From positions 11,562 through 75,561 of the forward strand of contig JAGXFS010000140.1 of NCBI GenBank assembly GCA_024637275.1: 64,000 nucleotides of DNA, written 5' to 3'. The notes beneath the pieces are model-generated. The model searched no databases, was not told the DNA's origin, and worked only from the letters and a program-made list of their open reading frames with translations. Made by a program: the position numbers and the translations under genes. Below are positions 2,481 to 42,187 of this stretch, in pieces (the first letter of the stretch is position 1; each line of letters starts with the position of its first letter). The DNA comes from Acidimicrobiia bacterium. Lineage in GTDB: Bacteria > Actinomycetota > Acidimicrobiia > Spongiisociales > JAENVV01.

Positions 2481-3623
2481 CTAGAAGCTACGAATCCGCT
2501 TCAGATAATTGGCAACGTTCGTCTGAAAATCACCAACGGTGTCGCCGCCGAACTGACGCTGAAGCTCCTGGGCGAGAACGACCGCCACCATCTGTTCTGC
2601 CACCACCCCGGCGGCAGGGACTGCGCACACGTCGCTACGTTCCCGGAACGCCACATCGGCCTCTTTGGTGTCGACGTCGACAGTATTCAATGGCCGCATA
2701 ACCGTCGATATCGGCTTCATCGCCGCCCGGACCCGCAATGGTTGGCCGGTCGTCATACCGCCTTCTGTGCCACCCGCCCGGTCGGTCTTGCGCACGAACT
2801 CGTCACCTTCACGGTAAATCTCGTCATGGGCAGCTGAGCCCCGCCGCCGAGCTGACTCGAACCCGTCGCCAACTTCAACGCCCTTGATCGCCTGGATCGA
2901 CATAAGGGCGTAGGCGAGACGAGCATCGAGTCGTCGGTCCCAATGGGTGTGCGAGCCAACGCCGACCGGCAGCCCATGGACAACGACCTCGACGACCCCA
3001 CCGAGGGTGTCACGATCCGCTTTGGCCGCTTCAATCTCGGCGATCATTCTGTCTTCGCCGCTCAGCGCCCGAACCGGCGAATCGTCGATGGCGGCGAGAT
3101 CTTCTGGCATTGGCAGAACCCCGTCAGATTGAGCCGTACCGATCTCGACGACATGGGAGAGCACCGCAACGCCAATGCAACTCAGGAGTTGCTTGGCAAC
3201 ATATCCGACCACGGTACGGGCGGCCGTCTCGCGGGCCGAGGCTCGTTCGAGAATATTGCGAGCATCATGCGTGTCGTATTTTTGCATCCCGACCAGATCG
3301 GCATGGCCCGGACGTGGGGTCGTAAGGGCTCGATCGGTTTCACCCGGGTCAGGAGACATCTCCTTCTCCCATCGCGGCCACTCTGTGTTGCGAATCAGAA
3401 CGGCGATTGGACTTCCGAGGGTCGACCCGTGGCGAACGCCTCCGAGGATCTCCAGGACATCTTTCTCGAGTTTCATCCGGTTGCCGCGCCCGTACCCGAG
3501 GCGACGCCGGGCCAGCTCGGCGCTCAACTCGTCACGCAGGAACGGTAAGCCGCTGGGGGCACCTTCAATCGTGGCGACCAGGCCAGGTCCGTGGGACTCG
3601 CCGGCGGTCAGGAAACGCAGCAT
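2481..3623 (-). CDS. aroC: Chorismate synthase
   Basis: 380 aa starting [26 protein letters not shown], the conserved chorismate synthase N-terminus. Confidence 0.9.
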
Positions 3624-3688
3624 CTGAACACTCTCGACATAGGAGCCGTAGCGTACACGAGATCAGTGTCCAGACCGACCGGCCCGGA

Positions 3689-4231
3689 TCACTTGAGGAT
3701 CTCTTGGCCCTCCACGACCTCGAACGCGTTGTCGCCGAACAGGAACACCGCTCGACCCAACGTGCCAGCACTCTCATCTGGCGGCGTGATCGAAATGACT
3801 TTGTACGACCCGGCGAACGTGTCGCCAACTCCAACGATATGGGTCGTTCCGTTCAGCACCACCTCAACAGTCAAAACCCCATCAGAGTCGGTCTGAATAT
3901 TGCTGACTTTGAAAGTGATCCCGTTGCGGCCACCCGATCCAGGCCCAAAATTGGCCGTTCCATCATCGAGAATCAGGGGACGGAAAGGGTCCCGGGGCTG
4001 GGAGGTTTGTAGGTTGGAAGCGACCACATCTCCAGCAACCAGCTGGGACACGTTGCCCGACGGTGCCGACTGAGGCGCAGCTTCGGCGATCAACGTTGCG
4101 TCGTATGGATTCGCTCCCGCCCCGAAGACCGCCGGAGCGATACCAAACCAGGCGACTGCCAGTCCAAGTCCGACCATGACGATCGCTAATGCGGTTGCCG
4201 ATCCAGATCCTCGCTTTTGCTTATGCATCAT
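3689..4231 (-). CDS. Type IV pilus-associated bitopic membrane protein (PilP-like, last gene of the pilMNOP block)
   Basis: 180 aa with one N-terminal TM helix (ALAIVMVGLGLAVAWFGIAPAVF) and an extracytoplasmic beta-rich domain. Its start overlaps the pilO stop. The assignment is by position only. Confidence 0.4.
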   Translation of the reverse strand: MMHKQKRGSGSATALAIVMVGLGLAVAWFGIAPAVFGAGANPYDATLIAEAAPQSAPSGNVSQLVAGDVVASNLQTSQPRDPFRPLILDDGTANFGPGSGGRNGITFKVSNIQTDSDGVLTVEVVLNGTTHIVGVGDTFAGSYKVISITPPDESAGTLGRAVFLFGDNAFEVVEGQEILK

Positions 4232-4878
4232 CCACCCACCGTGGTCGTGGTCGTCGAGGAATCTGGCGTCGTGGTCGTGGTCGTGGTCTCGTCGACCGGG
4301 ATATCCGGTTCTGCAACCTCTGGCGGGAGCGGAACGACAATCGCCCCCGTCGTGAACGCCATCGCGTTGATCGTAACTGTCAGGGTGTTGACGCCGGTCT
4401 CGCTGTCAATTGCAGGAGCTACGGTGATCCCGTCAACCCGAATCAGCCGATCCAATTCCGCAAGCCCGTACATGTATCCGAGCACTTCGAAATACTGGCC
4501 CGTAACGGTCATAGCGAGCGCCACCTCACGGACTCCGGTATTGCTCTGTTCGCCCGGAGTACTGAAACTGACAGCTTCCCAAACGACGTTGGCACGGTCA
4601 GCCAACACCGACAACTCATCCGTCAAACCGTCAATCTGCGGAAGTTCCGGGATAGACAACAGCATGTTGGCGTTGGCACGGTCATATTCGGGGAGCCGCT
4701 CATTAATCCGATTCAACTCGTTGAGACGTTGACGTAGCGCGTTCTCTTGGGCTTGGAGTGTTGACAGCTCCTGCTCCTGGATTGCGATGTCCTCGCCAAT
4801 CGGGGTCCACAGTAGGAAGTAGAAGGCTGCGCCAACCAAAAGCATCAGTGGAATCGCGATGAGCATGGCCCGTCTCAT
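4228..4878 (-). CDS. pilO: Type IV pilus assembly protein PilO
   Basis: The track ORF 4228..5025 overlaps pilN, so an internal Met (MRRAMLIAIPLMLLVGAAFYF...) was chosen as start. TM helix followed by a coiled coil (ELSTLQAQENALRQRLNELNRINERL). Thr-rich C-terminal tail. Confidence 0.6.
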   Translation of the reverse strand: MRRAMLIAIPLMLLVGAAFYFLLWTPIGEDIAIQEQELSTLQAQENALRQRLNELNRINERLPEYDRANANMLLSIPELPQIDGLTDELSVLADRANVVWEAVSFSTPGEQSNTGVREVALAMTVTGQYFEVLGYMYGLAELDRLIRVDGITVAPAIDSETGVNTLTVTINAMAFTTGAIVVPLPPEVAEPDIPVDETTTTTTTPDSSTTTTTVGG

Positions 4879-5504
4879 TCTGAAATCTCCACGATGCGGG
4901 TCGTCGACCGGTTCGAAAGTGCCTGAGTAGTGAGAGATGCCGACGATGAGAAGTCCACCGTCGAGAAATCGCCAATCGCGGCTTGGGTAATACTTGATAC
5001 CCAAGCACCCCCGAGTGCGGACCACTCAGTTGAGTCGAGGGTTCTAAACCAGGTTGAAGCATCCGGATAGTCAAAGGCGGTACCGGTAAACGTCACCGAC
5101 CCGTAAGTTGGGGTTTCACCGGTGTCGTCTTCGGGAGGAGCGGCGCCGGCCGTCAACGTTCCGACCCAGGTCCGCGGAGGTAAAACCCTCCCGAGGTCGT
5201 TCAAGAATCGACCCCAGTCGACGTCCACCGCCAGAGATTCAGTGATCTGCGAAGAGCGGCTTTCATAAAGATCAAGCGCTGCCGCTGCGTCGGACAACGC
5301 CGCAATGTCATTCTCAAGACGGGCGTTCGCCGCGCGCTGATTGTCGACGTTGTCAACGGCAGCGGACAGAGCCTGCGTTCGGAGGAACCACAACCCACCA
5401 AGGGCCACGAGAAAAATCACGAACAAGAGAACCACAAACGCGGAGCCACGCCGCTGCCGGGCAGCCCGTGCTTGCTCGGGAGGCAGGAGATTAATCGGCC
5501 GCAC
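4875..5504 (-). CDS. pilN: Type IV pilus assembly protein PilN
   Basis: 209 aa with the PilN hallmark N-terminus MRPINLLPPEQ (INLLP motif), then a TM helix and coiled coil. Abuts the pilM stop. Confidence 0.65.
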   Translation of the reverse strand: MRPINLLPPEQARAARQRRGSAFVVLLFVIFLVALGGLWFLRTQALSAAVDNVDNQRAANARLENDIAALSDAAAALDLYESRSSQITESLAVDVDWGRFLNDLGRVLPPRTWVGTLTAGAAPPEDDTGETPTYGSVTFTGTAFDYPDASTWFRTLDSTEWSALGGAWVSSITQAAIGDFSTVDFSSSASLTTQALSNRSTTRIVEISE

Positions 5505-6578
5505 TTATGCTTCTCCCCATAGTGCCAGACCAACCGCCACCGGCAGAACCGGTTGGGTCTGGTTGAGTTCCTCTTCGGTTAAGCCAGTCTTGCCTACGGA
5601 TAGTCGGTCGGAATTCAGCAACGCTACCGGTTGGAGCTGCATGTTGAGCTGGACCCGCATGCGGTTGGCGAGGTGCGGGAGACGCGCTCCGTTGCCAGCG
5701 ATCATGATGGTGTCGATCCCCCCGTCTTCGGCCGACGAAAGATAGAAATCAAGCGAACTGCGCACCTCATCGACCAGTGCGTCAGCCTGGCGGGTCAATG
5801 CAGCCATCGCTACGGCATCCGGGTCATTGCCAGTCGGCATTCCTTCGATAGCCACACCCAGACGCCGCTTCAACTGCTCAGCTTGATCCTGATCAATACC
5901 CAGAGCGTCCGTGACGCTCTGGGTGAAGTCGTTGCCGCCGTTGGGCACAATGCGCAAGAATCGCAACGTGCCGCCTTTGATGACGAGCACCTGCGTCAAG
6001 CTCGCGCCGATATTGACAATCGCCTTCGGGTTGGGACTCAGGTCGATGTCCCCACCGGTGGCCGCCCGCACCAGCGCAAACGCCTGGAGGTCAATAGCCT
6101 TGGGCTTGATGCCGGCTCCACCCAAAATCCGCACCACATCCGAAGCCATCTCCTTCTGGGCGGCCACGACCATGATCGACATGCGGGCTTCGCCTTCTGG
6201 CGTTGAAAACTCCTCCAACGGAACGAAATCCAGGATGGCTTCGTCGATGGGAATGGGAATATATTCTTGCGCTTGGAAAGCCAGCGACTCCGCCAGTTCG
6301 CTCTCCTGCATATAGGGCACAGAGATCTGGCGGACGATCACACGTTGATTGGCAATCCCGACAATCACATTCTTCTTGGGGATCTTCGCCTCTTTGAACA
6401 GCCGGGTTAGGGCGTCCTGGAGCACGGTTTCGTCGACGATCTCGCCGTTCTGAATTGCTCCGGGCGGCAACGCGACTTCTGCGAACTTCTTGAGGACCGG
6501 CGGACCCTTTTTCGAGGTCTCAACAAGCGCAGCTCGTACGGCACTCGTTCCGATGTCCAGACCGACATTGGCGGTCAT
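5505..6578 (-). CDS. pilM: Type IV pilus assembly ATPase-like protein PilM (actin-like fold)
   Basis: Start set at the internal Met of MTANVGLDIGTSAVRAALVE, the PilM/FtsA-like phosphate-1 motif. It is preceded by AAGGAG on the minus strand. The track ORF runs to 6608. Confidence 0.8.
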   Translation of the reverse strand: MTANVGLDIGTSAVRAALVETSKKGPPVLKKFAEVALPPGAIQNGEIVDETVLQDALTRLFKEAKIPKKNVIVGIANQRVIVRQISVPYMQESELAESLAFQAQEYIPIPIDEAILDFVPLEEFSTPEGEARMSIMVVAAQKEMASDVVRILGGAGIKPKAIDLQAFALVRAATGGDIDLSPNPKAIVNIGASLTQVLVIKGGTLRFLRIVPNGGNDFTQSVTDALGIDQDQAEQLKRRLGVAIEGMPTGNDPDAVAMAALTRQADALVDEVRSSLDFYLSSAEDGGIDTIMIAGNGARLPHLANRMRVQLNMQLQPVALLNSDRLSVGKTGLTEEELNQTQPVLPVAVGLALWGEA

Positions 6579-6691
6579 TCTTACGCTCCTTGGCGGCCAG
6601 CACCGCAATCCCTTGCCCGTAGGCTACAACATCGTAATTACAAACGTGTTGTTTTGGAAGCGTAGCCGCGTGCGAGCGATCGTCGCAAGAA

Positions 6692-7489
6692 CTAGCCGAT
6701 GCCGAGATAAGCCCGGGCGATCTCATTGCCGAACGCAATCGCCAGCCAGGCACCAGCAACCATCGATGGGCCAAAAGGAATTGCGTCCTTGCGACTAACT
6801 CGCCTGGTGATAAGGAGAAGAATCGACACTCCCCCACCGATGAAGACCGCCCCGAACACCGCTACAACCAAAGCCGCCCAGGACACGTATCCAACGAACA
6901 TACCGAGGAAAAACGCCAGCTTCACATCACCCATCCCGAAGCCGGCCGGTACGAGCAAAGCCAGGATGAGAAAACCACCAAAATATGCGAGTGCGGTGAT
7001 CCAGGATCGACCGTAGGAACCAAGCCCACCTTCCGCAACTGCCCCCGCCCCGAGCAGCAGAGCACCAACTAGTGCTCCCGGGAACAGAATCCGGTTGGGG
7101 ATCCGTTTGGTGTCAAAATCGATGAGCGCCAAGGCCAACGTAACGGCGGCAAACCACAAATAGGCGACGACCGTCCAGTCCAGACCGACGACGAGGTAGA
7201 CGCCGTAAAACAGCGCTGCATTGGCCGCCTCTACGAGCGGGTACCGCGCCGAAATAGGAGTGCGACAGGAACGGCATTTCCCGCGCAAGAGAAGCCAAGA
7301 CAGGACCGGGAGGTTGTCATACGGCTTGATCTCCGTCCCACAGTTCGGGCAAGCCGACGGCGGGCTGACCACAGACAGACCTGCCGGGATTCGATAGACG
7401 ACCACGTTCAGAAAAGAACCAACGACGAGCCCAACCACGATGAACAGATACGGCGCGACTAGCTCAAGGTTGTCCAAATACAGATCCAT
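6692..7489 (-). CDS. pilD: Prepilin peptidase (A24 family, PilD)
   Basis: Zinc-binding Cys tetrad (CPNCGTEI...CRSCRTPI) followed by about 8 TM helices and the DxxxxxG region. Start placed at the internal MDLYLDN; the track ORF extends to 7636 in an unlikely N-terminal extension. Confidence 0.8.
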   Translation of the reverse strand: MDLYLDNLELVAPYLFIVVGLVVGSFLNVVVYRIPAGLSVVSPPSACPNCGTEIKPYDNLPVLSWLLLRGKCRSCRTPISARYPLVEAANAALFYGVYLVVGLDWTVVAYLWFAAVTLALALIDFDTKRIPNRILFPGALVGALLLGAGAVAEGGLGSYGRSWITALAYFGGFLILALLVPAGFGMGDVKLAFFLGMFVGYVSWAALVVAVFGAVFIGGGVSILLLITRRVSRKDAIPFGPSMVAGAWLAIAFGNEIARAYLGIG

Positions 7490-7539
7490 GTGTCCTACTC
7501 GATCGGTCGTGGAGCCTACCCCAAGACCGATCAGTTCAA

Positions 7540-8007
7540 CTACCAACCATTCTGGCAATCGGCGAGTAGGCCGAAGGTCATCGTGGCATCCTGGCCAAAG
7601 TAGGTGCCGGCCGCAGAACCAGATCCCTCGTCCCACAAACAGAACCAGGTACCCGAGTTGCTTTGCGCGACGAACATCACAGCCTGGTCGGCCAGTCCAT
7701 CGGCATTGGCGAGGATCACAAATCCCACCTCGTCCGGGGTCGGCGCCAGCCCGGCGACATACGCGATCCCGGCGTGCACGCGGTCGAGTTCCGGTACTCC
7801 GAAGTTGTAGTCGGCGTTGGTATCGGCATAAATCACCTTGGCCGCAGACAAAGAGTTGCGTAGATCGCTCTGCACAGCTCGGTCCTAGGCCCTGACTCTG
7901 GCTCCTAAGAACGTTGGTATCGCAATGGCAATGAGAATGGCAATAATGAGAACCACCACCATCAGCTCTACCAACGTGAAGCCTTCTTCGTCATGTTTCA
8001 GACGCAT
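7540..8007 (-). pseudogene. Type IVa major-pilin paralog interrupted by an in-frame amber codon at 7885..7887
   Basis: Reading the minus strand from the ATG at 8005..8007 (preceded by GAGGAG) gives MRLKHDEEGFTLVELMVVVLIIAILIAIAIPTFLGARVRA-TAG-DRAVQSDLRNSLSAAKVIYAD..., all in one frame. The intact paralog at 8205..8720 has Gln at the aligned position (GARERAQDRAAQSNLRN). Confidence 0.6.
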
Positions 8008-8019
8008 GAGCTCCTCGCT

Positions 8020-8050
8020 TTCAAATTGTTATATATAGAGAGTTGTATCG
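8020..8050 (-). promoter_or_regulatory. AT-rich putative promoter (-10-like TATATA) for the downstream pilin/pilD transcription unit
   Basis: The stretch ttgttatatatagagagttgtat is strongly AT-rich in an otherwise ~65% GC window. It lies about 20-40 nt upstream of the pilin RBS and start, just after the upstream terminator. Confidence 0.25.
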
Positions 8051-8105
8051 GCGCCAGACAGCTGATGCTGTAGCTCCAAGACGGAGTAGCGGACGCCGGG
8101 TCGAG

Positions 8106-8140
8106 AGAGTATTGGCACCAACTCCACAAAAAAGGGACCG
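8106..8140 (-). terminator. Rho-independent terminator following the intact pilin gene
   Basis: Perfect hairpin aaagggaccgcc-cgaa-ggcggtcccttt. On the minus strand it is followed by a T-run (TTTTTTGTGG). It sits 65 nt downstream of the pilin stop. Confidence 0.55.
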
Positions 8141-8204
8141 CCCGAAGGCGGTCCCTTTCGAATCCGAGCTACCTGACGAATCAGGCAGATCTCAGTTTGG
8201 TTTC

Positions 8205-8720
8205 TTACCAGTCAGTGGCGGCGCACTCGGCCCGGGTGAAGCTCAAGTCGACACCGGTCAGGTCCGACCCGTAGGTGGTACCCGAACCGTACGTCCCGTT
8301 CGTCAACACATCTGAGATACAGAAGCTCGTGCCCGAGGCCGAGTCCGTCGTGAAGGTGATGACCTGACGGTCAGCTGCCGCACTGTTGTTCTCGACAACG
8401 TAGCCAACTTCGTTGGCTCCGACGGTGATGGCTCCAGCAACGAAGGTCAAGCTGGGCTCGATAGCGTTCAGGAGAGCCGGCGTAACATCGGCGGCAGCAC
8501 CATTGGAGAAGTCTTCTTCGTCGGTGTAGTGCACCTTGGCCGAAGTCAACGCGTTGCGAAGGTTCGACTGGGCGGCACGGTCCTGAGCACGCTCACGAGC
8601 ACCGAGGAAGGTCGGGATGGCGATGGCGATAAGAATGGCAATAATCAAAACAACGACCATCAACTCGACGAGGGTGAAACCCTCTTCTTTGTTCAGGCGG
8701 TTACGCATCCATGAAATCAT
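8205..8720 (-). CDS. pilA: Type IVa major pilin (class III signal peptide)
   Basis: 171 aa. Leader MISWMRNRLNKEEG, then FTLVELMVVVLIIAILIAIAIP (cleavage after Gly, Glu at +5). Two Cys near the C-terminus (FCISD...AECAATDW), probably a disulfide-bonded loop. AAGGAG lies 7 nt upstream of the ATG. Confidence 0.8.
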   Translation of the reverse strand: MISWMRNRLNKEEGFTLVELMVVVLIIAILIAIAIPTFLGARERAQDRAAQSNLRNALTSAKVHYTDEEDFSNGAAADVTPALLNAIEPSLTFVAGAITVGANEVGYVVENNSAAADRQVITFTTDSASGTSFCISDVLTNGTYGSGTTYGSDLTGVDLSFTRAECAATDW

Positions 8721-8888
8721 TATGGGACTCCTTATAAGTGTTCAATGTTCCCTGCAGGCCGTCTTGACCTACGTAGGTGTTATCGACGCCCCGGCGCCGA
8801 GACTTAAGAACTAATCCACGATTCTTTAACGAGCCAGGGACCCGCAAAAAGCGAATCCCTGTCTCCGGAATTGGACCGGTTAGCTGGT

Positions 8889-10115
8889 TTACTGGACGAG
8901 GTTGACGATATTGAACATCGGCATATAGAGGGCGATCAACATGCCACCCACGGTCGCACCCAAAACGACGATAAGGAGCGGCTCGATGAGGCTGGTGAGG
9001 CCTTCGACCATCGCCTCGACCTCAGAATCGTAGAAGTCGCCAACCTTCTCGAGCATCGTGTCGAGGGCACCCGTTTCCTCCCCGACGGCGATCATCTGAA
9101 CGACCATCGGCGGAAACACCGGATGATCTCTTAGTGGGGCCGCAATCGACTCACCTTCAGCGACGGACGCCTTGACATCCTGGACGGCTCGAGCCACCAC
9201 GGCGTTGCCGGCGGTGTCAGACACAATATCCATCGCCTGGAGGATTGGCACCCCGGTCTTGGTTAGCGCTGCCAGCGTGTGCGAGAACCGAGCAATAGCC
9301 GTCTTATGAATCAGATTTCCGAAGATCGGCAGCTTCAACTTGATGGCGTCGAAGGTAGATCGTCCACCGTCGGTGGCGATCCACCTCTTGAACGACACCA
9401 GCGAACCAACCGACACAATGATCACGGCCCACCAGTAGGTGGTGACCAGCTTCGAGAGGAGCAACAAGAACTTGGTTGCACCGGGGAGCTCTCCCCCGAG
9501 GTCCGCGTATAGCGCCTCGAACATCGGTACCACGAAGATGATCATGGCCGCGACGATGAAGATAACCAGTCCGAACACCGCGATCGGATACATCATGGCC
9601 GACTTGATTTTGGACCGCAGGGCGACCTGTGCCTCGAGAGTATCGGCGAGCCGCAACAGCGTGTCGTCGAGCACACCACCCACCTCACCAGCCTTCACCA
9701 TGGCGGTGTACAGCTGGTTGAAGGCCTTCGGGTGTTGTTCCATGGCCGCTGAGAGGCTCGTACCACGTTCGACGTCAGCTTTGACCAGGTCGATGATGTC
9801 GGAGAGTGCCTTGTTCTCGGTCTGGTCCGAGAGGATACTGAGCGACCGTAGCAGCGACAGGCCCGCATTGATCATCGTGGCGAACTGCCGCGAGAAAATC
9901 GCCACGTCCTTGGCCTTCACGCGATCGGTGAGGCCCGGAATCTTGATCTCTTTCTTCAAACCAGAGTTCGCCGCGGCCGTCTCGGACAGACTGAGCGGGC
10001 TCAGGCCCTTGCCCCGCAACGCTGTCGCGGCAGCCGTCTGCGTGGAGGCTTCGATCGTGCCCTTCTTGACTTTGCCGTCCGAGTCTTTGGCCCGGTATTC
10101 AAATGTTGTAGCCAT
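8889..10115 (-). CDS. pilC: Type IV pilus platform protein PilC (GspF family)
   Basis: 408 aa with two GspF-type repeats and three TM segments. Lies between pilT and the pilin gene. Confidence 0.85.
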   Translation of the reverse strand: MATTFEYRAKDSDGKVKKGTIEASTQTAAATALRGKGLSPLSLSETAAANSGLKKEIKIPGLTDRVKAKDVAIFSRQFATMINAGLSLLRSLSILSDQTENKALSDIIDLVKADVERGTSLSAAMEQHPKAFNQLYTAMVKAGEVGGVLDDTLLRLADTLEAQVALRSKIKSAMMYPIAVFGLVIFIVAAMIIFVVPMFEALYADLGGELPGATKFLLLLSKLVTTYWWAVIIVSVGSLVSFKRWIATDGGRSTFDAIKLKLPIFGNLIHKTAIARFSHTLAALTKTGVPILQAMDIVSDTAGNAVVARAVQDVKASVAEGESIAAPLRDHPVFPPMVVQMIAVGEETGALDTMLEKVGDFYDSEVEAMVEGLTSLIEPLLIVVLGATVGGMLIALYMPMFNIVNLVQ

Positions 10116-10125
10116 GCTCTATCTC

Positions 10126-11694
10126 CTAAGCCACGCGACCGACAAGTCGCTGTAGATCTTCCAGGTCAGAGCACCGCTCCGCGGCGAGCTCGTAGGTAAT
10201 AATGTTTCGTCGCACCAGGTCCGCCAGGGACTGGTCCATGGTTTGCATGCCCCACTTTCCGCCGGCTTGCATGGCGGTGGCGATCTGGTGGTTCTTTCCT
10301 TCGCGAATCAGGTTTCTAACCGCAGGGGTTGCGACCATCACTTCGATGGCTGGAACCCGGCCACGGCCGTCACGGGTAGGCAACAGTTGCTGGGTTACGA
10401 CCGCTTGCAGCGTGGCTGCCAGCTGAACCCGGACCTGGCCCTGCTGGTGCGAAGGGAACACGTCGATCATACGATCGATCGTCTGGGGGGCGTCCTGGGT
10501 ATGAAGTGTGGCAAAAACCAGGTGGCCGGTTTCGGCTGCGGTCAGGGCGGTAGAGATGGTTTCCAGATCTCGCAGCTCACCTACCAGGATTACATCGGGG
10601 TCCTGGCGGAGGGCATGGCGCAGCGCCATGTTGAACCCCATGGTGTCTGCGCCGACCTCACGCTGGTTGACGATCGCCTTCTGATGGTGGTGTAGAAACT
10701 CGATGGGATCTTCAACGGTAAGAATGTGGCAGGCGCGTCGGCGGTTGATGAGGTCGACGATCGACGCCAGGGTGGTCGACTTACCGGAACCGGTAGGTCC
10801 CGTGACGAGGACGAGGCCACGCGCATATTCTGCGAACTCACCGACGACGGTCGGCACACCGAGTTCCTCAAGCGGCTTGATTACGTCCGGAATGGCGCGG
10901 AACACCGCCCCAACCGCGTCACGTTGAAAGAAAACGTTAAGACGGAAACGACCTTTGCCCGGCAACGGATGTGAGGCGTCGAGTTCTAGCGACTCTTCCA
11001 GCTTCTCACGCTGCTTCTCAGTCAGGATCGCATAGATCATGCGCCGGATGTCTGCCGGCATCATGATGCCAAAGTCCGTGAGTTGCCGAAGCTCGCCGTT
11101 GACGCGGATCTGAGGAGACGAGCCAGCGGTGATGTGGAGGTCAGATCCACCCTGGTCGACCAGGATCGTGAGCAACGTGTTGACATGAAGTGCCGGCTCG
11201 GCGACCTCGATGTCCGGCACGGCGCCGCCCATGCCGGGGACCCGGGTAACCGGGATTTCCTCCGGTCCATGCATGAACGAGATGGCCCGCTGGATGGCTT
11301 CCTTGGTAGCCAGAGCGAGGGTGATCTTCTTACCGGTGATCTGTTCGAGGCGCCGATGGCGTTCGGCGTCGAAGGGGTCAGCGACCGCAACCGTGAGGAC
11401 GTTATCCACCAATCGGACGGGAATCGCCAGGAGGGCGGCGGAGTCGTCGCCACTCAAGGCGGCGATTGCCTCTGGGTCGAAAAGCTGATCGTCGAGTTCG
11501 ACGTATTCCATCCCGACCCGGGCAGCAACGGTTTTGAGGAGGTCTTCTTCACGCACGAGGCCGTCATCGGTAAGGATCTTCGCCATCGGCGTACCGGTGG
11601 TTTGCTCTTTGGCCAACACTGTCTCAAGCACATCTTTTGAGAGAAGGTGCCGGTCAACGAGGAGCTCGCCAAGTTTTCGCGATGCTGAGTTCAT
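10126..11694 (-). CDS. pilT: Pilus retraction ATPase PilT with an N-terminal GspE-N/MshEN-like extension
   Basis: The C-terminal ~350 aa carry PilT hallmarks: SDLHITAGSSPQIRVNGEL, Walker A GPTGSGKST, the Asp-box, His-box ATLHTQD and the PilT-specific AVRNLIREGKNHQI. The first ~170 aa contain two repeats resembling the GspE N-terminal domain (KLGELLVDRHLLSKDVLETVLAKEQ and MAKILTDDGLVREEDLLKTVAARVGMEYVEL). Confidence 0.8.
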   Translation of the reverse strand: MNSASRKLGELLVDRHLLSKDVLETVLAKEQTTGTPMAKILTDDGLVREEDLLKTVAARVGMEYVELDDQLFDPEAIAALSGDDSAALLAIPVRLVDNVLTVAVADPFDAERHRRLEQITGKKITLALATKEAIQRAISFMHGPEEIPVTRVPGMGGAVPDIEVAEPALHVNTLLTILVDQGGSDLHITAGSSPQIRVNGELRQLTDFGIMMPADIRRMIYAILTEKQREKLEESLELDASHPLPGKGRFRLNVFFQRDAVGAVFRAIPDVIKPLEELGVPTVVGEFAEYARGLVLVTGPTGSGKSTTLASIVDLINRRRACHILTVEDPIEFLHHHQKAIVNQREVGADTMGFNMALRHALRQDPDVILVGELRDLETISTALTAAETGHLVFATLHTQDAPQTIDRMIDVFPSHQQGQVRVQLAATLQAVVTQQLLPTRDGRGRVPAIEVMVATPAVRNLIREGKNHQIATAMQAGGKWGMQTMDQSLADLVRRNIITYELAAERCSDLEDLQRLVGRVA

Positions 11695-11821
11695 GGCTTC
11701 TAGTTCCCCTTATCGATCACATTTTGTGGGTCAATGTATCTTCGGCAGGCCTCGCGGCCGACTTAATGGATAATCGAGGTGGCTTGGAACTTTGACCCGG
11801 CGGTGGTCCCGGCGGGACGCG

Positions 11822-13504
11822 CTACACAGTAACGCGGAGGATCTCTTCGATCGAGGTATCTCCGCGACGTGCCTTGATGAGGCCGTCCTGGCGGAGCGGA
11901 CGCATACCTTCCTGCACGGCTACCTTCTTGATGGAGTCCGTGGTCGCCTGGTCTACGGCCATCCGCTCGATCGTTTCTGAGACGAGCATGAGCTCATGCA
12001 ACGCGAGTCGCCCCCGGTACCCGGTGTCACCACACCGTGCGCAGCCGCCCGGCTTGAACAGTTCGGGAACTTCGTCCCCAAACTCGTCGAACTGCCAACC
12101 AACCCTGGCCAAGGCGTCCTTGGTCGGTTGATAGGGGGTCTTGCACTCCCCACACAACCGGCGGGCCAGGCGCTGCCCGAGGACGGAATCGACAGCTGAC
12201 CCGACGAGGAATGGTTCGACGCCCATCTCGATCAGGCGGCTGATGGCCGACGGAGCATCATTGGTATGCATCGTCGAGAGCACCAGGTGACCGGTAAGAG
12301 CAGACTCGATGGCGATCTCGCCGGTCTCCTGGTCCCGGATCTCACCAACGAGCATGATGTCGGGGTCCTGACGCAAGAACGAGCGCAACGCCGACGCGAA
12401 GGTCAGGCCGGCCTTCTTGTTCACCTGGACCTGATTGATTCCGTTGAGGCGGTACTCGACCGGATCCTCACAGGTCACGATGTTGACGTCGGGCTGATTC
12501 AGCACATTCAGCGTTGAATAGAGCGTTGTTGACTTACCGGAACCAGTCGGGCCACAGCACAGGATCGTTCCATACGCCTTGTTATATGAGGAAGCATATC
12601 GCTCGAGGGTGTCTGGCTCGAAACCAAGTTGTTCCAGTTCGAGGGTGGCCGTTGAATTGTCGAGAATACGCATGACGATCTTCTCGCCGTAGATGGTGGG
12701 AAGGGATGAAACGCGCAAGTCGATCGTTTTCGTTCCTCCCACTCGCAGGCTGATACGACCGTCTTGGGGTCGACGTCGTTCCGCAATGTCCATGTCGGCC
12801 ATGATCTTCAAACGACTGACCACGGCGTTACTGACCGATCGCGGGGTCCGCATAATCTCGTGCAACACACCGTCCACCCGGAACCGCACCCGCAGGTCCT
12901 TGTCCGTTGGCTCGATGTGGATGTCAGACGCCCGCTCTGCCGCAGCCTTAGCGATAAGCATGTTGACCAATTTGACGATGGGAGCTTCTTCGGTGGACGC
13001 TTCGACCGCATTGAGGTCTTGCGTTTCCATCTCGTCTTCGCCAAAGCCGGCGAAGTCGGTGACCGAGTCGTCGAGGCCGGCATTGTTTGCAATGGCGTTT
13101 TCAACGTCGCTTCGTGTTGCAACCTTGGCGATGACGTCGCGACCCGAGATCGCCCGAATGTCATCGATCGCCAGCACATTGGCGGGGTCAGACAGCGCTA
13201 CGACGAGCTTATCGTCTTCAAAACCGATCGGGATAGCCGCATACCGGCGAGCGAGGGCATCGGGAATAAGCGCCGTAGCGGCGGGATCGATGGTGATTTC
13301 CTTGAGGTCGACGAACTCAACGCCGATCGCCTTCGCCAACGTGCGAACCAGGTCACGCTCGGAGACAATCTTCTCCTCGACCAGCACCCGCCCAAGCGGA
13401 CGGCCAGTCTCGGCCGCCATGGCCAGACCTTTCTCAAGGAGTTCCTGAGTTAGCAGCCCCTCCTCAAGGAGGAGGCTGGCGAGGTGTCCGCTATCACGAG
13501 TCAT
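11822..13504 (-). CDS. pilB: Type IV pilus assembly (extension) ATPase PilB, GspE family
   Basis: 560 aa. GspE-N domain at the N-terminus (LASLLLEEGLLTQELLEKGL...), Walker A GPTGSGKSTT, and the tetracysteine zinc motif (CGECK...CARCGDTGYRGR) typical of PilB/GspE. Confidence 0.85.
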   Translation of the reverse strand: MTRDSGHLASLLLEEGLLTQELLEKGLAMAAETGRPLGRVLVEEKIVSERDLVRTLAKAIGVEFVDLKEITIDPAATALIPDALARRYAAIPIGFEDDKLVVALSDPANVLAIDDIRAISGRDVIAKVATRSDVENAIANNAGLDDSVTDFAGFGEDEMETQDLNAVEASTEEAPIVKLVNMLIAKAAAERASDIHIEPTDKDLRVRFRVDGVLHEIMRTPRSVSNAVVSRLKIMADMDIAERRRPQDGRISLRVGGTKTIDLRVSSLPTIYGEKIVMRILDNSTATLELEQLGFEPDTLERYASSYNKAYGTILCCGPTGSGKSTTLYSTLNVLNQPDVNIVTCEDPVEYRLNGINQVQVNKKAGLTFASALRSFLRQDPDIMLVGEIRDQETGEIAIESALTGHLVLSTMHTNDAPSAISRLIEMGVEPFLVGSAVDSVLGQRLARRLCGECKTPYQPTKDALARVGWQFDEFGDEVPELFKPGGCARCGDTGYRGRLALHELMLVSETIERMAVDQATTDSIKKVAVQEGMRPLRQDGLIKARRGDTSIEEILRVTV

Positions 13505-13510
13505 GATGCC

Positions 13511-14545
13511 TTAGTGGGAGTCCTGAGTTTCGCCGAGTTCGCGAGCTAATGCGCTCAACCCGCCCCGGCGGCGGCTCAGATTGGCGGCCCGCTCACTGAG
13601 CGTGCCTTCGAGATCGTCTGTGGCATCGTAGTCGGAGGTGACAATCTCAACGGAGTCGTCGTCGCTCCCCGCCTCTCCGATAACTCCCGAGAGAACGGAC
13701 TGGAGCAGATCGTCGTCGTTGACGTCGTCACCATCGTTGGATGGGGCGTTGTCATCTTCGTAGACGAGGTCGGTTCGATTCATTGAGAACGTCCCTGACC
13801 CGCCCGAAGACGCCGACAATCCGAGATCGTCATCGCTATAGGTCGGGGCAGCCTCGAAACGTTCTTCGGTCACGGAAACAAGTTCCTGCCGGACCAGATT
13901 GGCCATCGCCTTGGCGACGACGAACTCTGACGTGCCGGTACGATGAGCTACTTCGGCGATTGTGCCGTGCCCACCCAACGCGGCCAGAAGCTTCCATGTT
14001 TCGATCTTGAGGGTCACATCACTGGCACCCTCTGGCAAGGTCTGCGCCATACGCAACCCGAACTTCGTTCCGGGGATGACCTCTTCAATATCAGCCCACT
14101 GCTCGGCCCGATGATCGGCGTCGGCAAGACAAATCTCGATGTCGACTACCTCTCCTGAGTCATAGCGCGGCGACACTTCATCGCCGAAGTCGAACGTACC
14201 CCGGCCAGGTCGGCCCAGGCGAAAAAGCACCTCGGTGCCCTGTTCGGCAAGGAAGTCGCGCAAGTCGGCGTGGGTGTGGCCTTCGATAAGCACCTCCGCC
14301 ACCGTCTGCTCGCGACGCTCAACCCGCATCCAGCCGTCCGTGTCCACGAATCCGGCATTGAGTAGATCGGTGCGCAGGTCTTCATCGCGTCGAGTGGTCG
14401 CATACGCGAGTTTCCCGCTCGATAAATAGATCTTTCCCTCAAGTCCACCGGCTTCAACGCGCAAACAGCCGGATTTCTGTGAGCGTGCCAGCATACGCAG
14501 CACCTCACTGAGAGGAATCGATTCGAGGCGTCCCGTCAGCGCCAT
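13511..14545 (-). CDS. DUF4388 (PATAN-like) domain protein with a long acidic low-complexity C-terminal tail
   Basis: The N-terminus GRLESIPLSEVLRMLARSQKSGCLRVEAGGLEGKIYLSSGKLAYA matches the DUF4388 signature (LxDxLQxL...KTGxL...GxIyfxxG). The C-terminal third is D/E/S-rich. The stop lies only 6 nt from the pilB start. Confidence 0.6.
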   Translation of the reverse strand: MALTGRLESIPLSEVLRMLARSQKSGCLRVEAGGLEGKIYLSSGKLAYATTRRDEDLRTDLLNAGFVDTDGWMRVERREQTVAEVLIEGHTHADLRDFLAEQGTEVLFRLGRPGRGTFDFGDEVSPRYDSGEVVDIEICLADADHRAEQWADIEEVIPGTKFGLRMAQTLPEGASDVTLKIETWKLLAALGGHGTIAEVAHRTGTSEFVVAKAMANLVRQELVSVTEERFEAAPTYSDDDLGLSASSGGSGTFSMNRTDLVYEDDNAPSNDGDDVNDDDLLQSVLSGVIGEAGSDDDSVEIVTSDYDATDDLEGTLSERAANLSRRRGGLSALARELGETQDSH

Positions 14546-14607
14546 GTTGTGACTCCTTAGTAGTCCTGCATCAATCTTCGGTAGATCGAGACAGCGCCTT
14601 GAGAGCT

Positions 14608-15393
14608 TTAGGGGCGACGAGCGGCGGCGGCCATGGCGTCATGGTCGGCCGATACGCCGGTCCAGATCGTGAATGCCGCCATTGCTTGCCCTATCAGCAT
14701 GTCGAGCCCAGGACTACAGGGGATTCCAAGTCGACCCGCTTCCAGCACTGCGGGGGTTGTCGCATCGCCATAAGGCATGTCGATGAATCCCGTGGCCGCG
14801 GCCAGGAGCCCGTCTGGCAGGTTTTCGCCGGCCATTCCGATGAGCGTCGCGTTAACGAGCACGGCCCCACTCACGGGTTTCTCCCACGGAACGAATACCG
14901 CATCGAGGTCGAGTTGCTCGAGCAGCAGTCGGGCGCGTCGCTCGTTGCGGGTGCTGACAGCCAAGTCGACGGATCCCGGATGAGCGTCAACAGCAACCAG
15001 GGCAGCCGCCGCCGCTCCACCAGCTCCGAGAACTACGACTGAATCAGACATTCCAATCCGATCAAAGGCGTACGCAACACCTGCGACATCGGTGTTTTCG
15101 GCTACGAGGGTTCCATCCGGTTCCCGCCACCAGGTGTTGGCTGCACCCAGGCGCTCGACCAGTTCGGAACGCCGATCGGCCAACGCAGCAGCCAGATGCT
15201 TATGGGGAGTGGTGATGTTCGCACCGGTCAAGGACCCGGACCGAACCTCGTCAGCTGCGGTCCGGAGGCCGTCACCATCAACCTGCCGGGCCGAATATTC
15301 GCCCGCGATCCCCGCCGCGCGTAGTCCGGCTCGGTGAATCGCCGGCGATCGAGAATGGCTGACCGGGTCGCCGAGAACGACCAATTTGATCAC
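14608..15393 (-). CDS. aroE: Shikimate dehydrogenase
   Basis: 261 aa (GDPVSHSRSPAIHRAGL...NITTPHK), the shikimate DH substrate-binding signature. Sits in the aro cluster. Confidence 0.8.
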   Translation of the reverse strand: MIKLVVLGDPVSHSRSPAIHRAGLRAAGIAGEYSARQVDGDGLRTAADEVRSGSLTGANITTPHKHLAAALADRRSELVERLGAANTWWREPDGTLVAENTDVAGVAYAFDRIGMSDSVVVLGAGGAAAAALVAVDAHPGSVDLAVSTRNERRARLLLEQLDLDAVFVPWEKPVSGAVLVNATLIGMAGENLPDGLLAAATGFIDMPYGDATTPAVLEAGRLGIPCSPGLDMLIGQAMAAFTIWTGVSADHDAMAAAARRP

Positions 15394-16460
15394 GGGAAGA
15401 GGCCCTCGGCCTTCGCCTGATCCTTCCAGGTCAGAAACTGGTTGTAGTCAGCCGTGAAACTGTGGGAGCCATCAGCGGCGGTTAGCACGTAATAGATGTA
15501 GTCGGTCTCCGGAGGATCGGCGATCGCCTCGAGCGACGCCAACCGGGGACCTCCGATGGGAGTGGGTGGGAGACCGAGGTTCTGATAGGTGTTGTACGGC
15601 GAGTCGAACTCGAGGTCGGCGAGCGTAAGTCCGATCCCCCGGGCGTCCATGGCGTACAGCACGGTGGCATCGATCTGGAGCGGCATACCAACGTCCATGC
15701 GGTTGACGATCACCGAAGCGACGTCGGGGCGATCGGCATCTACTTTTGTCTCGGCTTCGATAATCGACGCCGCGATCAAGCCTTCATAAATCGTATAGCC
15801 CCGGTCATTCCAGGCCGTCCAGTCGATCGACTCCACCCGACTCTCCATGGTACGCGCGAGTTTTCCGAGAATCGATGCAGCGCTGGCATCCGTCTCGAAT
15901 TCATAGGTGTCGGGAAAAAGCAAACCCTCCCAATCCTGAATCGACTCGGGAGGCAGTTCAAGGAGCGAGCTCTGGACTGCCCCACTGAGTAGGGCTTCTG
16001 CGAAGTCAGCTTCGCCATACGATGTCTGATTGGCTATCTCGGTGAGAACTTCCCCGATCCGCAAGCCTTCACGGACGGTGATTCGATAAGTCTCGAAGGC
16101 CGGGCCAGCCAGGAAGGCCGCGATGACGTCGTCGGTTGCCATCCCGGTGGTCAGCTCATACCGACCGGCGCCGAGACGCTGCGTATAGCCGCCGTCCTCG
16201 ACCGCGCTCTCAAACACCCGCGCCGACCCGATGACATCGGCCTCCTGGAGAAGGGAAGCGATGGTACGGGCCGATGCCCCGGCCGGGACTTCGACCGTCA
16301 CGGGAACTCCAACCGTCGCCGTCGCCTGTACGGTTGTCTCGGTAGGGGTAAACAGGTCCGAGAACATGGCTTTTCCGGCCAGACCGAGGCCTGCCAACGC
16401 AGCCAGGACCACTACGACGGCTAGAACGCTCCGATTCCGGGGTTCTTCAAACGAGGTCAT
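15390..16460 (-). CDS. mltG: Endolytic murein transglycosylase MltG (YceG family)
   Basis: 356 aa with an N-terminal TM helix followed by a YceG-like domain. Conserved position between ruvX and aroE. Confidence 0.8.
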   Translation of the reverse strand: MTSFEEPRNRSVLAVVVVLAALAGLGLAGKAMFSDLFTPTETTVQATATVGVPVTVEVPAGASARTIASLLQEADVIGSARVFESAVEDGGYTQRLGAGRYELTTGMATDDVIAAFLAGPAFETYRITVREGLRIGEVLTEIANQTSYGEADFAEALLSGAVQSSLLELPPESIQDWEGLLFPDTYEFETDASAASILGKLARTMESRVESIDWTAWNDRGYTIYEGLIAASIIEAETKVDADRPDVASVIVNRMDVGMPLQIDATVLYAMDARGIGLTLADLEFDSPYNTYQNLGLPPTPIGGPRLASLEAIADPPETDYIYYVLTAADGSHSFTADYNQFLTWKDQAKAEGLFP

Positions 16461-24619: not shown

Positions 24620-26122
24620 TTATGGCGTGCAGTAGGCCGTGACTGGCTCCGAGTTCGGAGATACATCCCGCCAGTCGCCTGGCTCAGGAATGAACGAGTC
24701 AGCGAGTGCCGGGTCAAACGTGAATCCCTGGATAACCCCTTCAGTCGGAGGACGGAAGTGGATTTCCAGGCGGTTACCCGTCTGGTCCTTGTAGCCATAC
24801 ATGGCACCGTAGATCACCGACTGGTTGGTTGACGTCACGATGCCGCTTGAGAAGACCAGGTGGTGCACCTCGCCGGGCACCGACTGGAAGTTCTGGCCAA
24901 GCGTCAATGTTCCGGTAGCTTTTTTCATGACGATGATTACGGAGGCCGGTTCGCCCGAGGGAGTCGAGCCCTTCTTCGGTGTGCCTCGAATCTCAAACGA
25001 GCCATCAACGATCAGAACGAAGTTGTCCGTGAAGGTGTTCTGATGGAAGTTGACGACACTTCCGTCCCCCGCCGCGACCACATGGACACCTTTGAGGTTA
25101 TTGCCGTTGGCCGCCACATAAGCACGGAAGTCCGCCAGGTTGGCATAGTAAGTGATCGTATAGCCCACGTAGTCACCTGCGTTGAAAGTGAAGACCGGGA
25201 GCGACACGTCTGGCACCGGCTGCATGTCATTGGCGTTCGGGATCAAAGTGGCGCCACCAATGTTCGATCCAGCCTTGAGAGCTAGGTCAGCAATCTTGAC
25301 TTCGCCACCGAGCACCGTCGCTTTCTTGAAGTATGAGTTCAGATAGGACGAGATGGTGCCGTCGGACCGGATTTGCACAGTCGACCCATATTGGGTTGAC
25401 GCAGACAGATCGTTGACACGACCTTGCACGTTGACATCCGATTGAACGAACACGTTCGAACCGCTGTCGATAGTCAGGTCACCGTATACCGTCATGGTGC
25501 CCTCGCCGCGATAGGGGTCATCGTTCTTGAAGATACTGGTTTGAGCCGAAATCGTGACGTCTTCACCCGAGTAGGCGTCACCGTAGATCGTCTTGAAGTT
25601 CGCTCCGACGATTCCACCCTTGGCTGCAAAGAGCGCATTGGTGAAGCCACCAAGAGGCACCAATTCGACGTCAAGCAACACCTTCTTGGCGACTCCCTTC
25701 GACGAGGTGCGGCTTGGTGCCCACCCCCACGACTCGAGGTGGTACTTAAGGTTATCGACCTTGGTGACTGCCACCCAATATTCGCCCTGACCCTCCACGA
25801 CGCCTTCGGCAACCGTCTCCAGGGTCTGCACGTCGCAGATCCCACCGGCCAGGATCCCCGAGGAGGCAAACCCGACGCTCTGCGCGTCCGTGCGCCAGCT
25901 GTCGACGTCGTAGGTGAGCAAAGCCATCGCTTCTTTCGCTCCTGCCTCGGCGACGTTTAACGCCTGAGTACGGTTACGGTCGAACGAGACCTCATCCAGT
26001 TCGTGAACCGCCAACGAATACCATGTGGCACCGAGCGCAAACACGATGAACGACACCGACAGAGCGGTGATAATACCGATGCCATCCTCGTCAGATCTCA
26101 GTTGTTCGATGAATTTGCGCAT
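24620..26122 (-). CDS. PilX/TadG-like pilus-associated protein (N-terminal PilX_N-like TM segment, large beta-rich extracellular region)
   Basis: 500 aa. N-terminus DEDGIGIITALSVSFIVFALGATWYSLAV resembles the PilX N-terminal domain. The remainder is rich in G/S/T/N/D/V repeats, suggesting a beta-helix-like fold. Last gene of a three-gene prepilin operon. Confidence 0.5.
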   Translation of the reverse strand: MRKFIEQLRSDEDGIGIITALSVSFIVFALGATWYSLAVHELDEVSFDRNRTQALNVAEAGAKEAMALLTYDVDSWRTDAQSVGFASSGILAGGICDVQTLETVAEGVVEGQGEYWVAVTKVDNLKYHLESWGWAPSRTSSKGVAKKVLLDVELVPLGGFTNALFAAKGGIVGANFKTIYGDAYSGEDVTISAQTSIFKNDDPYRGEGTMTVYGDLTIDSGSNVFVQSDVNVQGRVNDLSASTQYGSTVQIRSDGTISSYLNSYFKKATVLGGEVKIADLALKAGSNIGGATLIPNANDMQPVPDVSLPVFTFNAGDYVGYTITYYANLADFRAYVAANGNNLKGVHVVAAGDGSVVNFHQNTFTDNFVLIVDGSFEIRGTPKKGSTPSGEPASVIIVMKKATGTLTLGQNFQSVPGEVHHLVFSSGIVTSTNQSVIYGAMYGYKDQTGNRLEIHFRPPTEGVIQGFTFDPALADSFIPEPGDWRDVSPNSEPVTAYCTP

Positions 26123-26140
26123 GTTGGTTTTTTTCGCTTT

Positions 26141-26776
26141 CTAACAGTTGGCTGCGTTGGGGGTCCAAATATTGCGACCTGCTACTTCGGTTGATTCCAG
26201 GCGAGGGCTGATCCGGTCCAACGGACTCCGATCGATCCACACTGAGATCCGGACAACTTTGCCGTAGCTCGGCGAGGCCGACGGAAGGCCAGTGTTGTTG
26301 ATCTCGTTTCTGCCCTGGTTTTCAAACAGGAACTGGGGCGTGCCCAGGTCGACCGCAACAATCTCGTTGACGACGGTTTCGTTGACGGTTATAAACGTCA
26401 GGCCGCCATCACCGGATCGCTGCAGGTCCGTGTTGGCCCCGTCACCATCGACGTCAACCAACCGATAGATGATATGACGGGTGTCAGCCGGCGGGATCGG
26501 ATTGGAACGAGTAATGAACGACAGCGTGTTGGAAGCATCGCCAGGTGCGGGGATGCAAATCGTCTCGGCGCCGCGGAGCTCTCTATCCACCCTCTCCAAA
26601 ATCAAACGAATATCGTCGTTGGTCCTCGCCGAGTTTTCAATATCACGGGTAGCTCGCAACGAGGACGACAGCACGTTCGAGAACACGATGCTCACGATGG
26701 TCAACAGGAAGATGGCAACCATCAGTTCCGTGAGGGTGAGACCCCGTTCGTCGGTCTTGAGGCGGTCGAAGATCAT
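26141..26776 (-). CDS. Minor pilin / pseudopilin with a prepilin-type N-terminal cleavage-methylation domain
   Basis: Start at the internal MIFDRLKTDERG, then LTLTELMVAIFLLTIVSIVF (class III signal peptide, Glu at +5). The track ORF extends to 26809. The start overlaps the stop of the upstream giant pilin. Confidence 0.65.
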   Translation of the reverse strand: MIFDRLKTDERGLTLTELMVAIFLLTIVSIVFSNVLSSSLRATRDIENSARTNDDIRLILERVDRELRGAETICIPAPGDASNTLSFITRSNPIPPADTRHIIYRLVDVDGDGANTDLQRSGDGGLTFITVNETVVNEIVAVDLGTPQFLFENQGRNEINNTGLPSASPSYGKVVRISVWIDRSPLDRISPRLESTEVAGRNIWTPNAANC

Positions 26777-26777
26777 G

Positions 26778-42134: not shown

Positions 42135-42187
42135 CGGACATCCTTGAAGAGAGCTTGGGCGAACCATGCCAAGTTAGCGCTACTTGG

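Follow-up and report, generated by a model that had tools for sequence, protein, structure and literature searches.

In Actinobacteria, experimental work on type IV pili has dealt only with the Tad/Flp class (type IVc), in Micrococcus luteus and Bifidobacterium breve (PMC6916266). The genes of type IVa pili (T4aP) are so far known in Actinomycetota only from gene lists. A computational survey of 2019 (Denise et al., PMC6668835) found T4aP in monoderm Actinobacteria, and pilABCEMOTY1 is listed for free-living UBA5794 Acidimicrobiia genomes (PMC12008989); in the passages searched, both sources give lists of genes that mention no PilP-like protein, MshEN-PilT fusion or linkage to aro genes. Because such pili have already been detected in Actinobacteria and listed for metagenome-assembled genomes (MAGs) of Acidimicrobiia, a T4aP as such is not new in this group. 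Here, we describe a pilus locus in a stretch of 64,000 nucleotides, called the window at its full length, from an Acidimicrobiia bacterium (Spongiisociales; JAENVV01; NCBI GenBank assembly GCA_024637275.1, contig JAGXFS010000140.1, positions 11,562 to 75,561 of the forward strand). The region very probably encodes the core of an apparently functional, retractable T4aP in a monoderm, uncultured member of the Acidimicrobiia, with a locus that is ancient and vertically inherited and not a recent insertion. Undescribed in the literature searched are its PilP-like protein with a predicted HR domain in a secretin-less machine, the fusion of an MshEN-type domain to the retraction ATPase PilT, and the linkage of pilMNOP to aro genes in Actinomycetota.

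The T4aP of monoderm Firmicutes, described for Streptococcus sanguinis, Clostridium perfringens and C. difficile (PMC6916266), likewise lack a secretin and are encoded by clustered genes. They share with the window PilB, PilC, PilD, PilM, PilN, PilO, several pilins and the retraction ATPase PilT. In contrast to the enlarged PilO of S. sanguinis, PilO of the window is about the size of PilN (216 versus 209 residues). Only the window has the PilP-like HR-domain protein, the MshEN-like N-terminal domain of PilT, a PATAN protein before pilB and detached minor pilins. PilP has been stated to be absent in monoderms, yet a minimal synthetic machinery for assembly required it (PMC6916266). The Proteobacteria offer a second comparison. 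The same order, pilM-pilN-pilO-pilP followed by shikimate genes, is found in the pilMNOPQ-aroK-aroB arrangement of V. cholerae and others (PMC7545093), and E. coli K-12 has hofMNOPQ followed by aroK-aroB. In a survey of T4aP secretins, pilMNOPQ was flanked downstream by aroK and aroB as a rule, which was described as “consistent with literature precedent” (PMC7545093). The likeness extends to the equal size of PilN and PilO and to the position, the HR fold and the RDPF motif (as in HofP) of the PilP-like protein. However, the window locus has neither PilQ nor accessory outer-membrane proteins, its PilP-like protein has a transmembrane anchor and is not a lipoprotein, aroC and not aroK comes next, and pilB, pilT, pilC, pilA and pilD lie in the same cluster. 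Tad/Flp systems resemble the window in having prepilin filaments processed by a prepilin peptidase and in occurring in the same phylum, but the window lacks a best match to TadA/CpaF, a TadB/TadC pair and a short Flp pilin, and it encodes PilT and PilMNO.

According to the list of open reading frames (ORFs), exactly eleven minus-strand ORFs lie at 3689-14545 between aroE and aroC, and the outer limits match those of the eleven co-oriented genes reported in a first-pass annotation of this DNA. Families were assigned by running the Pfam-A and NCBIfam models on the window ORFs, and these searches bear out the calls of PilB, PilT, PilC, PilD, PilM, PilN and PilO made in that annotation. The gene nearest to aroE encodes a PATAN/DUF4388 protein of 344 residues (13511-14545; PF14332, DUF4388/PatA_N, 7e-18). 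It is followed by the extension ATPase PilB (560 residues, 11822-13504), with a T2SSE match of 9.5e-137 and an N-terminal MshEN match of 2.6e-20; the best NCBIfam model is TIGR02538, whose 652 bits are slightly below the equivalog cutoff of 675.65. The retraction ATPase PilT (522 residues, 10126-11694) reaches 478 bits with TIGR01420 (pilT_fam) against a cutoff of 319, over residues 171-510, and contains the PilT-type motif VRNLIREGK. The platform protein PilC (408 residues, 8889-10115) carries two T2SSF repeats (PF00482, 4.7e-68) and scores 432 and 414 bits with the NCBIfam PilC models, below their equivalog cutoffs; an exact look-up of the protein found no record. Two pilin genes come next, pilA1 (171 residues, 8205-8720; N_methyl 4.5e-8 and TIGR02532) and pilA2 (155 codons including an in-frame TAG, 7540-8007; N_methyl and translation), separated by an intrinsic terminator. 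The prepilin peptidase and N-methyltransferase PilD has 265 residues (6692-7489), starts with MDLYLD and matches A24_N_bact at 4e-35 and Peptidase_A24 at 5e-14.

The remaining genes form a tight group in which adjacent pairs abut or share 4 nucleotides, as do the pilO start and the pilN stop. PilM, the actin-like cytoplasmic component (357 residues, 5505-6578), matches PilM_2 at 9.7e-51 and TIGR01175 with 209 bits against a cutoff of 133. PilN (209 residues, 4875-5504; Pfam PilN 9.9e-6) begins, as read from its sequence, with RPINLLPPE, which resembles the PilM-binding INLLP motif; binding of PilM by this motif of PilN is established. PilO has 216 residues (4228-4878), with a Pfam PilO match of 3.4e-11 and weak matches to T2SSM and T2SSM_b. 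The matches of PilM, PilN and PilO all exceed the Pfam gathering scores. The last gene (3689-4231) encodes the PilP-like protein of 180 residues, which has a transmembrane helix and a predicted HR-type beta domain and is without a Pfam or NCBIfam match.

The machine belongs to the T4aP class and not to the Tad/Flp class, in agreement with the first-pass annotation, since Tad and ComG models score far below the models for PilB, PilT and PilC. A Tad/Flp reading was rejected on several grounds: the TadA-family model yields 43-51 bits where 373 would be required, PilC occurs once, the pilins have 155-171 residues, and PilT is present. A ComG reading was rejected as well, with ComG-type models scoring far below those for PilB and PilC. 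Both pilins have short class III leaders (G-1, F+1, E+5) of 14 and 9 residues. The description of the locus as secretin-less also holds: no PilQ secretin was found in the locus, among the scanned window ORFs or in the related loci, a search whose scope was these sequences and not the whole genome.

The locus had also been called complete, and this part does not stand. Minor-pilin genes lie about 10 kb away, at 24620-28841, and the genes within 3689-14545 therefore make up only part of the machine. Scanning for the class III leader motif, together with N_methyl matches (9.6e-5 and 2.1e-5), revealed at this place two prepilin-type proteins on the minus strand, one of 687 residues (26778-28841) and one of 222 residues (26141-26809). 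They are followed on the same strand by a membrane-anchored protein of 500 residues without a family match (24620-26122). This module is situated between relA/spoT (28949-31135) and a metallo-beta-lactamase-fold hydrolase with hisS. In two distant related loci (L092 and L094), a three-gene module composed of a large pilin, a pilin of about 220 residues and a DUF7305 protein is placed between the pilP-like gene and aroC, with an order and gene sizes similar to those in the window. The BLASTP links between the modules are weak (5e-13 for the 222-residue protein and 8.6e-4 for the 500-residue protein against DUF7305).

Known T4aP systems, read onto genes assigned by homology and an HR fold obtained by structure prediction, would give the following working model. 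PilD would cleave and methylate PilA1, and PilB, acting via PilC, would polymerize it from the membrane, with priming by the detached minor-pilin module at 24620-28841. PilM would bind the N-terminus of PilN, and the membrane-anchored PilP-like protein would stabilize PilN and PilO; having no secretin partner, it may work where the machine sits in the inner membrane or the cell wall. PilT would depolymerize the fibre, and the terminator after pilA1 would allow more of the major pilin to be produced than of the machinery.

The sequence leaves adhesion, twitching and DNA uptake as candidate outputs. In many bacteria, natural transformation is powered by T4aP machines that include PilT, and the system could be a dedicated DNA-uptake (competence) pilus, or a secretion pseudopilus working through the wall, instead of an adhesion or motility pilus. 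The syntenic hofMNOPQ genes of E. coli are annotated as DNA utilisation genes, and one pilin of L092 has a weak ComP_DUS match. Nevertheless, comEA, comEC and dprA were not found among the annotated window genes, and the low scores of the ComG-type models relative to those for PilB and PilC also speak against competence. Additionally, the large pilin-like protein of 687 residues suggests a tip adhesin, and the presence of PilT argues against a static pseudopilus. We therefore consider this alternative unlikely, though not remote; it concerns only the function and leaves the identity of the machine as a retractable T4aP untouched.

The transmembrane helix of the PilP-like protein spans residues 10-36 and is followed by the conserved motif QxSQPRDPFRPLI and a linker rich in Gly; residues 105-180, at the C-terminal end, form the predicted beta domain of the HR type. 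A word-indexed search gave 158 homologues, none of them named, while an exhaustive profile search gave 1278 cluster representatives of the family at E <= 1e-3. Common to the family are the N-terminal transmembrane helix, the near-invariant QxSQPRDPFRPLI motif, a Gly/Thr-rich linker and the C-terminal beta domain. In an AlphaFold2 model built with 45 sequences, the predicted local distance difference test (pLDDT) score exceeds 90 over residues 105-180, and the modelled domain has the beta fold of HR domains. The sole match with a high template-modelling score in Foldseek is a GspC chain, and all E-values are greater than 0.01. Weak matches to T2SSB (GspB) occur in 14 of the 45 close and 8 of the 52 distant family members (best E 5.6e-5), and 4 of the 52 distant members weakly match Pfam PilP (E >= 0.039). 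Some homologues carry a precomputed PF16537, and one was named PilP by the Joint Genome Institute (JGI). When the family profile is used against PDB sequences, matches number 2 and 3 are PilP of N. meningitidis, with E-values of about 0.6 that are not significant alone. The mature part of E. coli HofP, a PilP homologue, starts with RDPFKPP, which can be compared with the RDPF motif. In all loci compared, the pilP-like gene comes immediately after pilO.

A reading in which the protein is no relative of PilP, being an unrelated small membrane protein with a beta sandwich that follows pilO by chance, draws on the sequence searches. The window protein has no significant sequence match in Pfam, NCBIfam or the PDB, including the Pfam PilP family (PF04351), and the Foldseek E-values have just been given. 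An alignment of the family profile with the single HofP sequence by hhalign covers the expected region at a probability of only 12.6%, which is not significant. No Cys is present anywhere in the window protein, so it cannot carry the lipoprotein signal of classical PilP; its N-terminal transmembrane helix is an anchor of the kind found in the bitopic proteins GspC and GspB. With the fold, the position and the motif on the other side, this alternative is improbable. On the strength of the structural model, the 180-residue protein is predicted to have the PilP/GspC/GspB HR fold in the position of PilP, and by score it is not a Pfam PilP. The tentative “PilP-like” label of the first-pass annotation is thus supported by the fold.

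Both motors carry an N-terminal domain of the MshEN type. In PilT, residues 1-165 form an MshEN/T2SSE_N-type domain (Pfam MshEN 7.7e-15, residues 61-139). With NF053729, a model of the cyclic di-GMP (c-di-GMP) motif domain with a cutoff of 38, PilB reaches 44.6 bits and PilT 38.3 bits (residues 7-57). All Acidimicrobiia loci share the fusion to PilT, as do L092-L094, whose PilT is 50-56% identical over its full length; PilT of Microbacteriaceae has a different, Pro-rich extension. The MshEN receptors MshE, PilB and PilF (PMC5013675, PMC11731258) have the same tandem 24-residue motifs; here, these motifs are also fused to PilT, and they are degenerate. In each motor, two of them are separated by a spacer of 5 residues, and only 17 and 18 of 22 constrained positions match. 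Position 10 of motif I has changed from G/A/S to H or R, and position 3 of motif II from G to A. In the literature searched, which includes PMC5013675 and PMC11731258, MshEN is treated in connection with extension ATPases and glycosyltransferases only. Judged from sequence, candidate control points of the machine are the PATAN protein and the MshEN-like domains on both motors, which may respond to c-di-GMP.

The PATAN protein itself consists of a domain at residues 4-150 and an acidic tail, has no receiver domain and is encoded directly upstream of pilB. It is present in part of the Acidimicrobiia loci and in the distant L093 and L094. In cyanobacteria, PixE and PixG also tie PATAN/DUF4388 to a T4P extension motor; the window protein, known from its sequence, differs in lacking a CheY-like receiver and in its acidic tail. 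For Synechocystis, binding of PATAN domains to PilB1 and to PilC has been found (bioRxiv 10.1101/2021.06.11.447907), and a stand-alone PATAN protein encoded upstream of pilB fits this result. By analogy, the protein is a candidate regulator of the extension motor. At the corresponding place in L093 (1-907), a PatA_N protein of 465 residues upstream of pilB is followed by a small Ras/Arf-like GTPase of 195 residues. This GTPase recalls the MglA type, and polarity GTPases of that type control T4P in Myxococcus.

The history of the locus was followed in related loci, which were collected with a PilD-profile scan at one genome per species; this gave 80 loci, against which all window proteins were searched with tblastn. 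PilD homologues with 55-96% identity are named as prepilin peptidases of Acidimicrobiia MAGs, and among the species representatives, MFD03551.bin.2.75, a MAG of the Acidimicrobiia, comes closest, with 95% PilD identity. In every Acidimicrobiia locus with enough flanking sequence, the order is alaS-ruvX-mltG-aroE-[PATAN]-pilB-pilT-pilC-pilA-(pilA2)-pilD-pilM-pilN-pilO-pilP-like-aroC-(aroK)-aroB-efp-nusB. About 35 Acidimicrobiia loci, with PilD identities as low as about 50%, retain every gene of the set in intact form. Median identities are 61-63% for PilB, PilT and PilC and 47-53% for AlaS, MltG, AroE and AroB. The divergence of the pil genes correlates with that of the housekeeping genes for the tested components (Spearman 0.5-0.73), with PilD as the exception (0.34, p = 0.055). 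The locus does not stand out in GC content, and its borders were not seen to carry an integrase, a tRNA or repeats. Outside the class, a Nitriliruptorales MAG and two other MAG or metagenome contigs (L092-L094, 0.18-1.6 Mb) carry a locus of this type with distant members of the PilP-like family, and aroC and aroK come directly after it. L094 is the only one of them that reaches further, and there aroC and aroK are followed by aroB-aroQ-pepQ-efp-nusB.

The first-pass annotation had described the pilus genes as spliced into the aro operon by an insertion that could be dated. This does not agree with an order that is conserved in Acidimicrobiia, co-diverges with its flanks and is linked to aroC in distant Actinomycetota as well. 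Since the synteny is found in Acidimicrobiia, Nitriliruptorales-like genomes and Proteobacteria, the “insertion” is better read as an old, conserved linkage. A recent horizontal insertion, with the T4P genes as a cargo island between aroE and aroC, is very hard to maintain: the pilus genes do interrupt a housekeeping run, and a related locus is found elsewhere in the two Microbacteriaceae loci examined and can evidently move, but all informative Acidimicrobiia loci agree exactly in position and order, the pilMNOP(Q)-aro linkage recurs in distant Actinomycetota (aroC) and in Proteobacteria, divergence tracks that of the housekeeping genes, and neither a GC shift nor marks of mobility at the borders were noted. 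The locus is accordingly taken as an ancient and vertically inherited one.

In the Microbacteriaceae loci (among L032-L087; Curtobacterium, Leifsonia and others), the order is pilB-pilT-pilC-pilA-(minor pilins, about 4 kb)-pilD-pilM-pilN-pilO. In L045 (Curtobacterium pusillum) and L079 (Leifsonia aquatica), this locus is located upstream of rpsL-rpsG-fusA-tuf and has no aro linkage. A PilP-like gene was not found in these two loci, in which no ORF of at least 90 residues has an RDPF motif and a tblastn search with the window protein was empty. Between pilD and pilM, L092-L094 contain a small HTH_17 (excisionase/MerR-like) gene (L092 7357-7572, L093 7460-7672, L094 7424-7606), which is absent in the window, where the pilD-pilM gap is 113 nucleotides. 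The aroE and pilB genes of L005 (1912-5530, on a 372-kb ENA contig) are both broken up into several short ORFs. The pilA2-aroB part of this locus is intact in a Logan assembly, and the splits are probably long-read frameshift errors and not pseudogenes.

PilA1 is the probable major pilin. Its leader, MISWMRNRLNKEEG, is followed by FTLVE, and two Cys are present at its C-terminal end. About 45 nucleotides past its stop, a stem-loop with a 13-bp stem, AAAGGGACCGCC-UUCG-GGCGGUCCCUUU and then UUU, forms an intrinsic terminator on the minus strand at 8127-8159, identified by its fold and conservation. The surrounding 91 nucleotides fold at -44.3 kcal/mol (z = -5.4), and none of 200 shuffled sequences folds as well. 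Relatives down to 70% PilD identity share an unchanged hairpin core within a spacer that has diverged around it. The terminator that had been proposed after the first pilin is thus real and conserved, although it was placed at 8106-8140. A consensus scan missed it, the probable reason being that the U-run can also pair as part of the stem, and Rfam gave no RNA family at threshold within the window. A strong terminator directly after pilA1 fits a major, highly expressed subunit. The model in which the locus is split into transcription units after the first pilin is plausible; its further step, in which pilD-pilMNOP would be transcribed from a promoter of the second pilin, meets a nonsense allele of that pilin in this genome. 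The promoter proposed for an AT-rich stretch is not endorsed, because the AT-rich stretch at 8018-8040 has not been preserved in L005, a relative with 70% identity, and a consensus scan found no sigma-70-like promoter in 3000-15500.

The second pilin gene, pilA2, starts with the ATG at 8007, and its translation meets an in-frame TAG at codon 41 (7885-7887). In all four relatives compared (L003, L004, L005 and L010), this codon is CAG and the gene is intact, with 155 residues. Two further short-read assemblies, L088 and L089 (SRR13628065 and SRR13628066), come from the same population, match the window at 99.9% identity and carry the identical TAG; because these separate assemblies share it, an assembly error was ruled out. 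In this accessory pilin gene, which directly precedes pilD, the TAG is a genuine nonsense mutation at the strain level. By tblastn of the related loci, pilA2 was found in only some lineages.

The flanks of the locus were assigned with Pfam. Upstream, aroE (14608-15393, minus strand; Shikimate_dh_N and SDH_C) is preceded by mltG, ruvX and alaS. Downstream, on the same strand, aroC (2481-3623) and aroB (1434-2462) are followed by efp and nusB. Between aroC and aroB (junction 2462-2481), aroK is absent in the window and its close relatives, where the gap measures 15-50 nucleotides; in most other Acidimicrobiia, it lies within an aroC-aroB gap of about 500-590 nucleotides. No aroK was found anywhere in the 64-kb window by tblastn. 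The rest of the window is a conserved actinobacterial backbone with relA, an apt-like gene, secDF, tgt, queA, ruvAB, yebC, pdxST and thrS, whose order presumably matches that of the M. tuberculosis chromosome. Adjoining thrS, at 41115-44951 on the minus strand, are genes for a GT4 glycosyltransferase, a lipid acyltransferase and a pgsA-type CDP-alcohol phosphatidyltransferase, a cluster that we take to resemble the pgsA1-acyltransferase-pimA phosphatidylinositol-mannoside cluster of Actinomycetota. Together with the named PilD homologues and the nearest genome, these genes speak for an origin of the window in the Actinomycetota. The first-pass annotation had further mentioned a lone prepilin peptidase gene at the aroE-aroC junction of mycobacteria. 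An expression table gives Rv2551c as a 13.8-kDa protein with four transmembrane segments, which is compatible with a short A24-type peptidase and does not show one; a search for prepilin peptidases in connection with aro genes brought up nothing relevant.

Some of these results count against the interpretation given here. Besides the missing Pfam PilP match, the weak HofP alignment, a secretin search that covered the window and related loci only and the lack of a recognizable sigma-70-like promoter, they concern the motor domains and the second pilin. Neither the PilB nor the PilT motifs satisfy the published relaxed MshEN pattern ([RKPN]hGxxhhxx[GAS]hhxxxxhxxxhxx[QNKRYWST], in tandem, 5 residues apart; PMC5013675), and no GGDEF/EAL motif was seen in the window. 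Control by c-di-GMP is speculative for this reason. The pilA2 nonsense allele means that at least one part is decaying or dispensable.

The actinobacterial T4aP appears to be built unlike the Firmicutes monoderm model, in that a PilP-like HR protein is kept without a secretin. Such a protein bears on the role of PilP in filament assembly, a question that was raised by minimal synthetic machineries. The locus also presents a retraction motor with a putative signalling domain. As a tentative proposal, which we regard as possible rather than probable, the T4aP of Actinomycetota would be a diderm-type machine minus the secretin, with an HR domain in a secretin-independent role and both motors gated by MshEN. 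If this were true, the equal-size PilN and PilO, the PilP-like protein and the pilMNOP-aro linkage would be vestiges from a double-membraned ancestor, and the HR domain would stabilize PilN and PilO or form a collar through the cell wall. Gating of PilT by a nucleotide-binding MshEN domain would then be a mode of control that is undescribed for PilT. The cultivable Microbacteriaceae, such as Curtobacterium and Leifsonia, could serve as an experimental entry to the core machine, but not to the PilP-like protein. The linkage of pilMNOP to shikimate genes in a distant monoderm phylum points to an arrangement that is either very old or repeatedly selected, and it may serve as a marker for tracing changes in envelope-spanning machines through losses or gains of the outer membrane.

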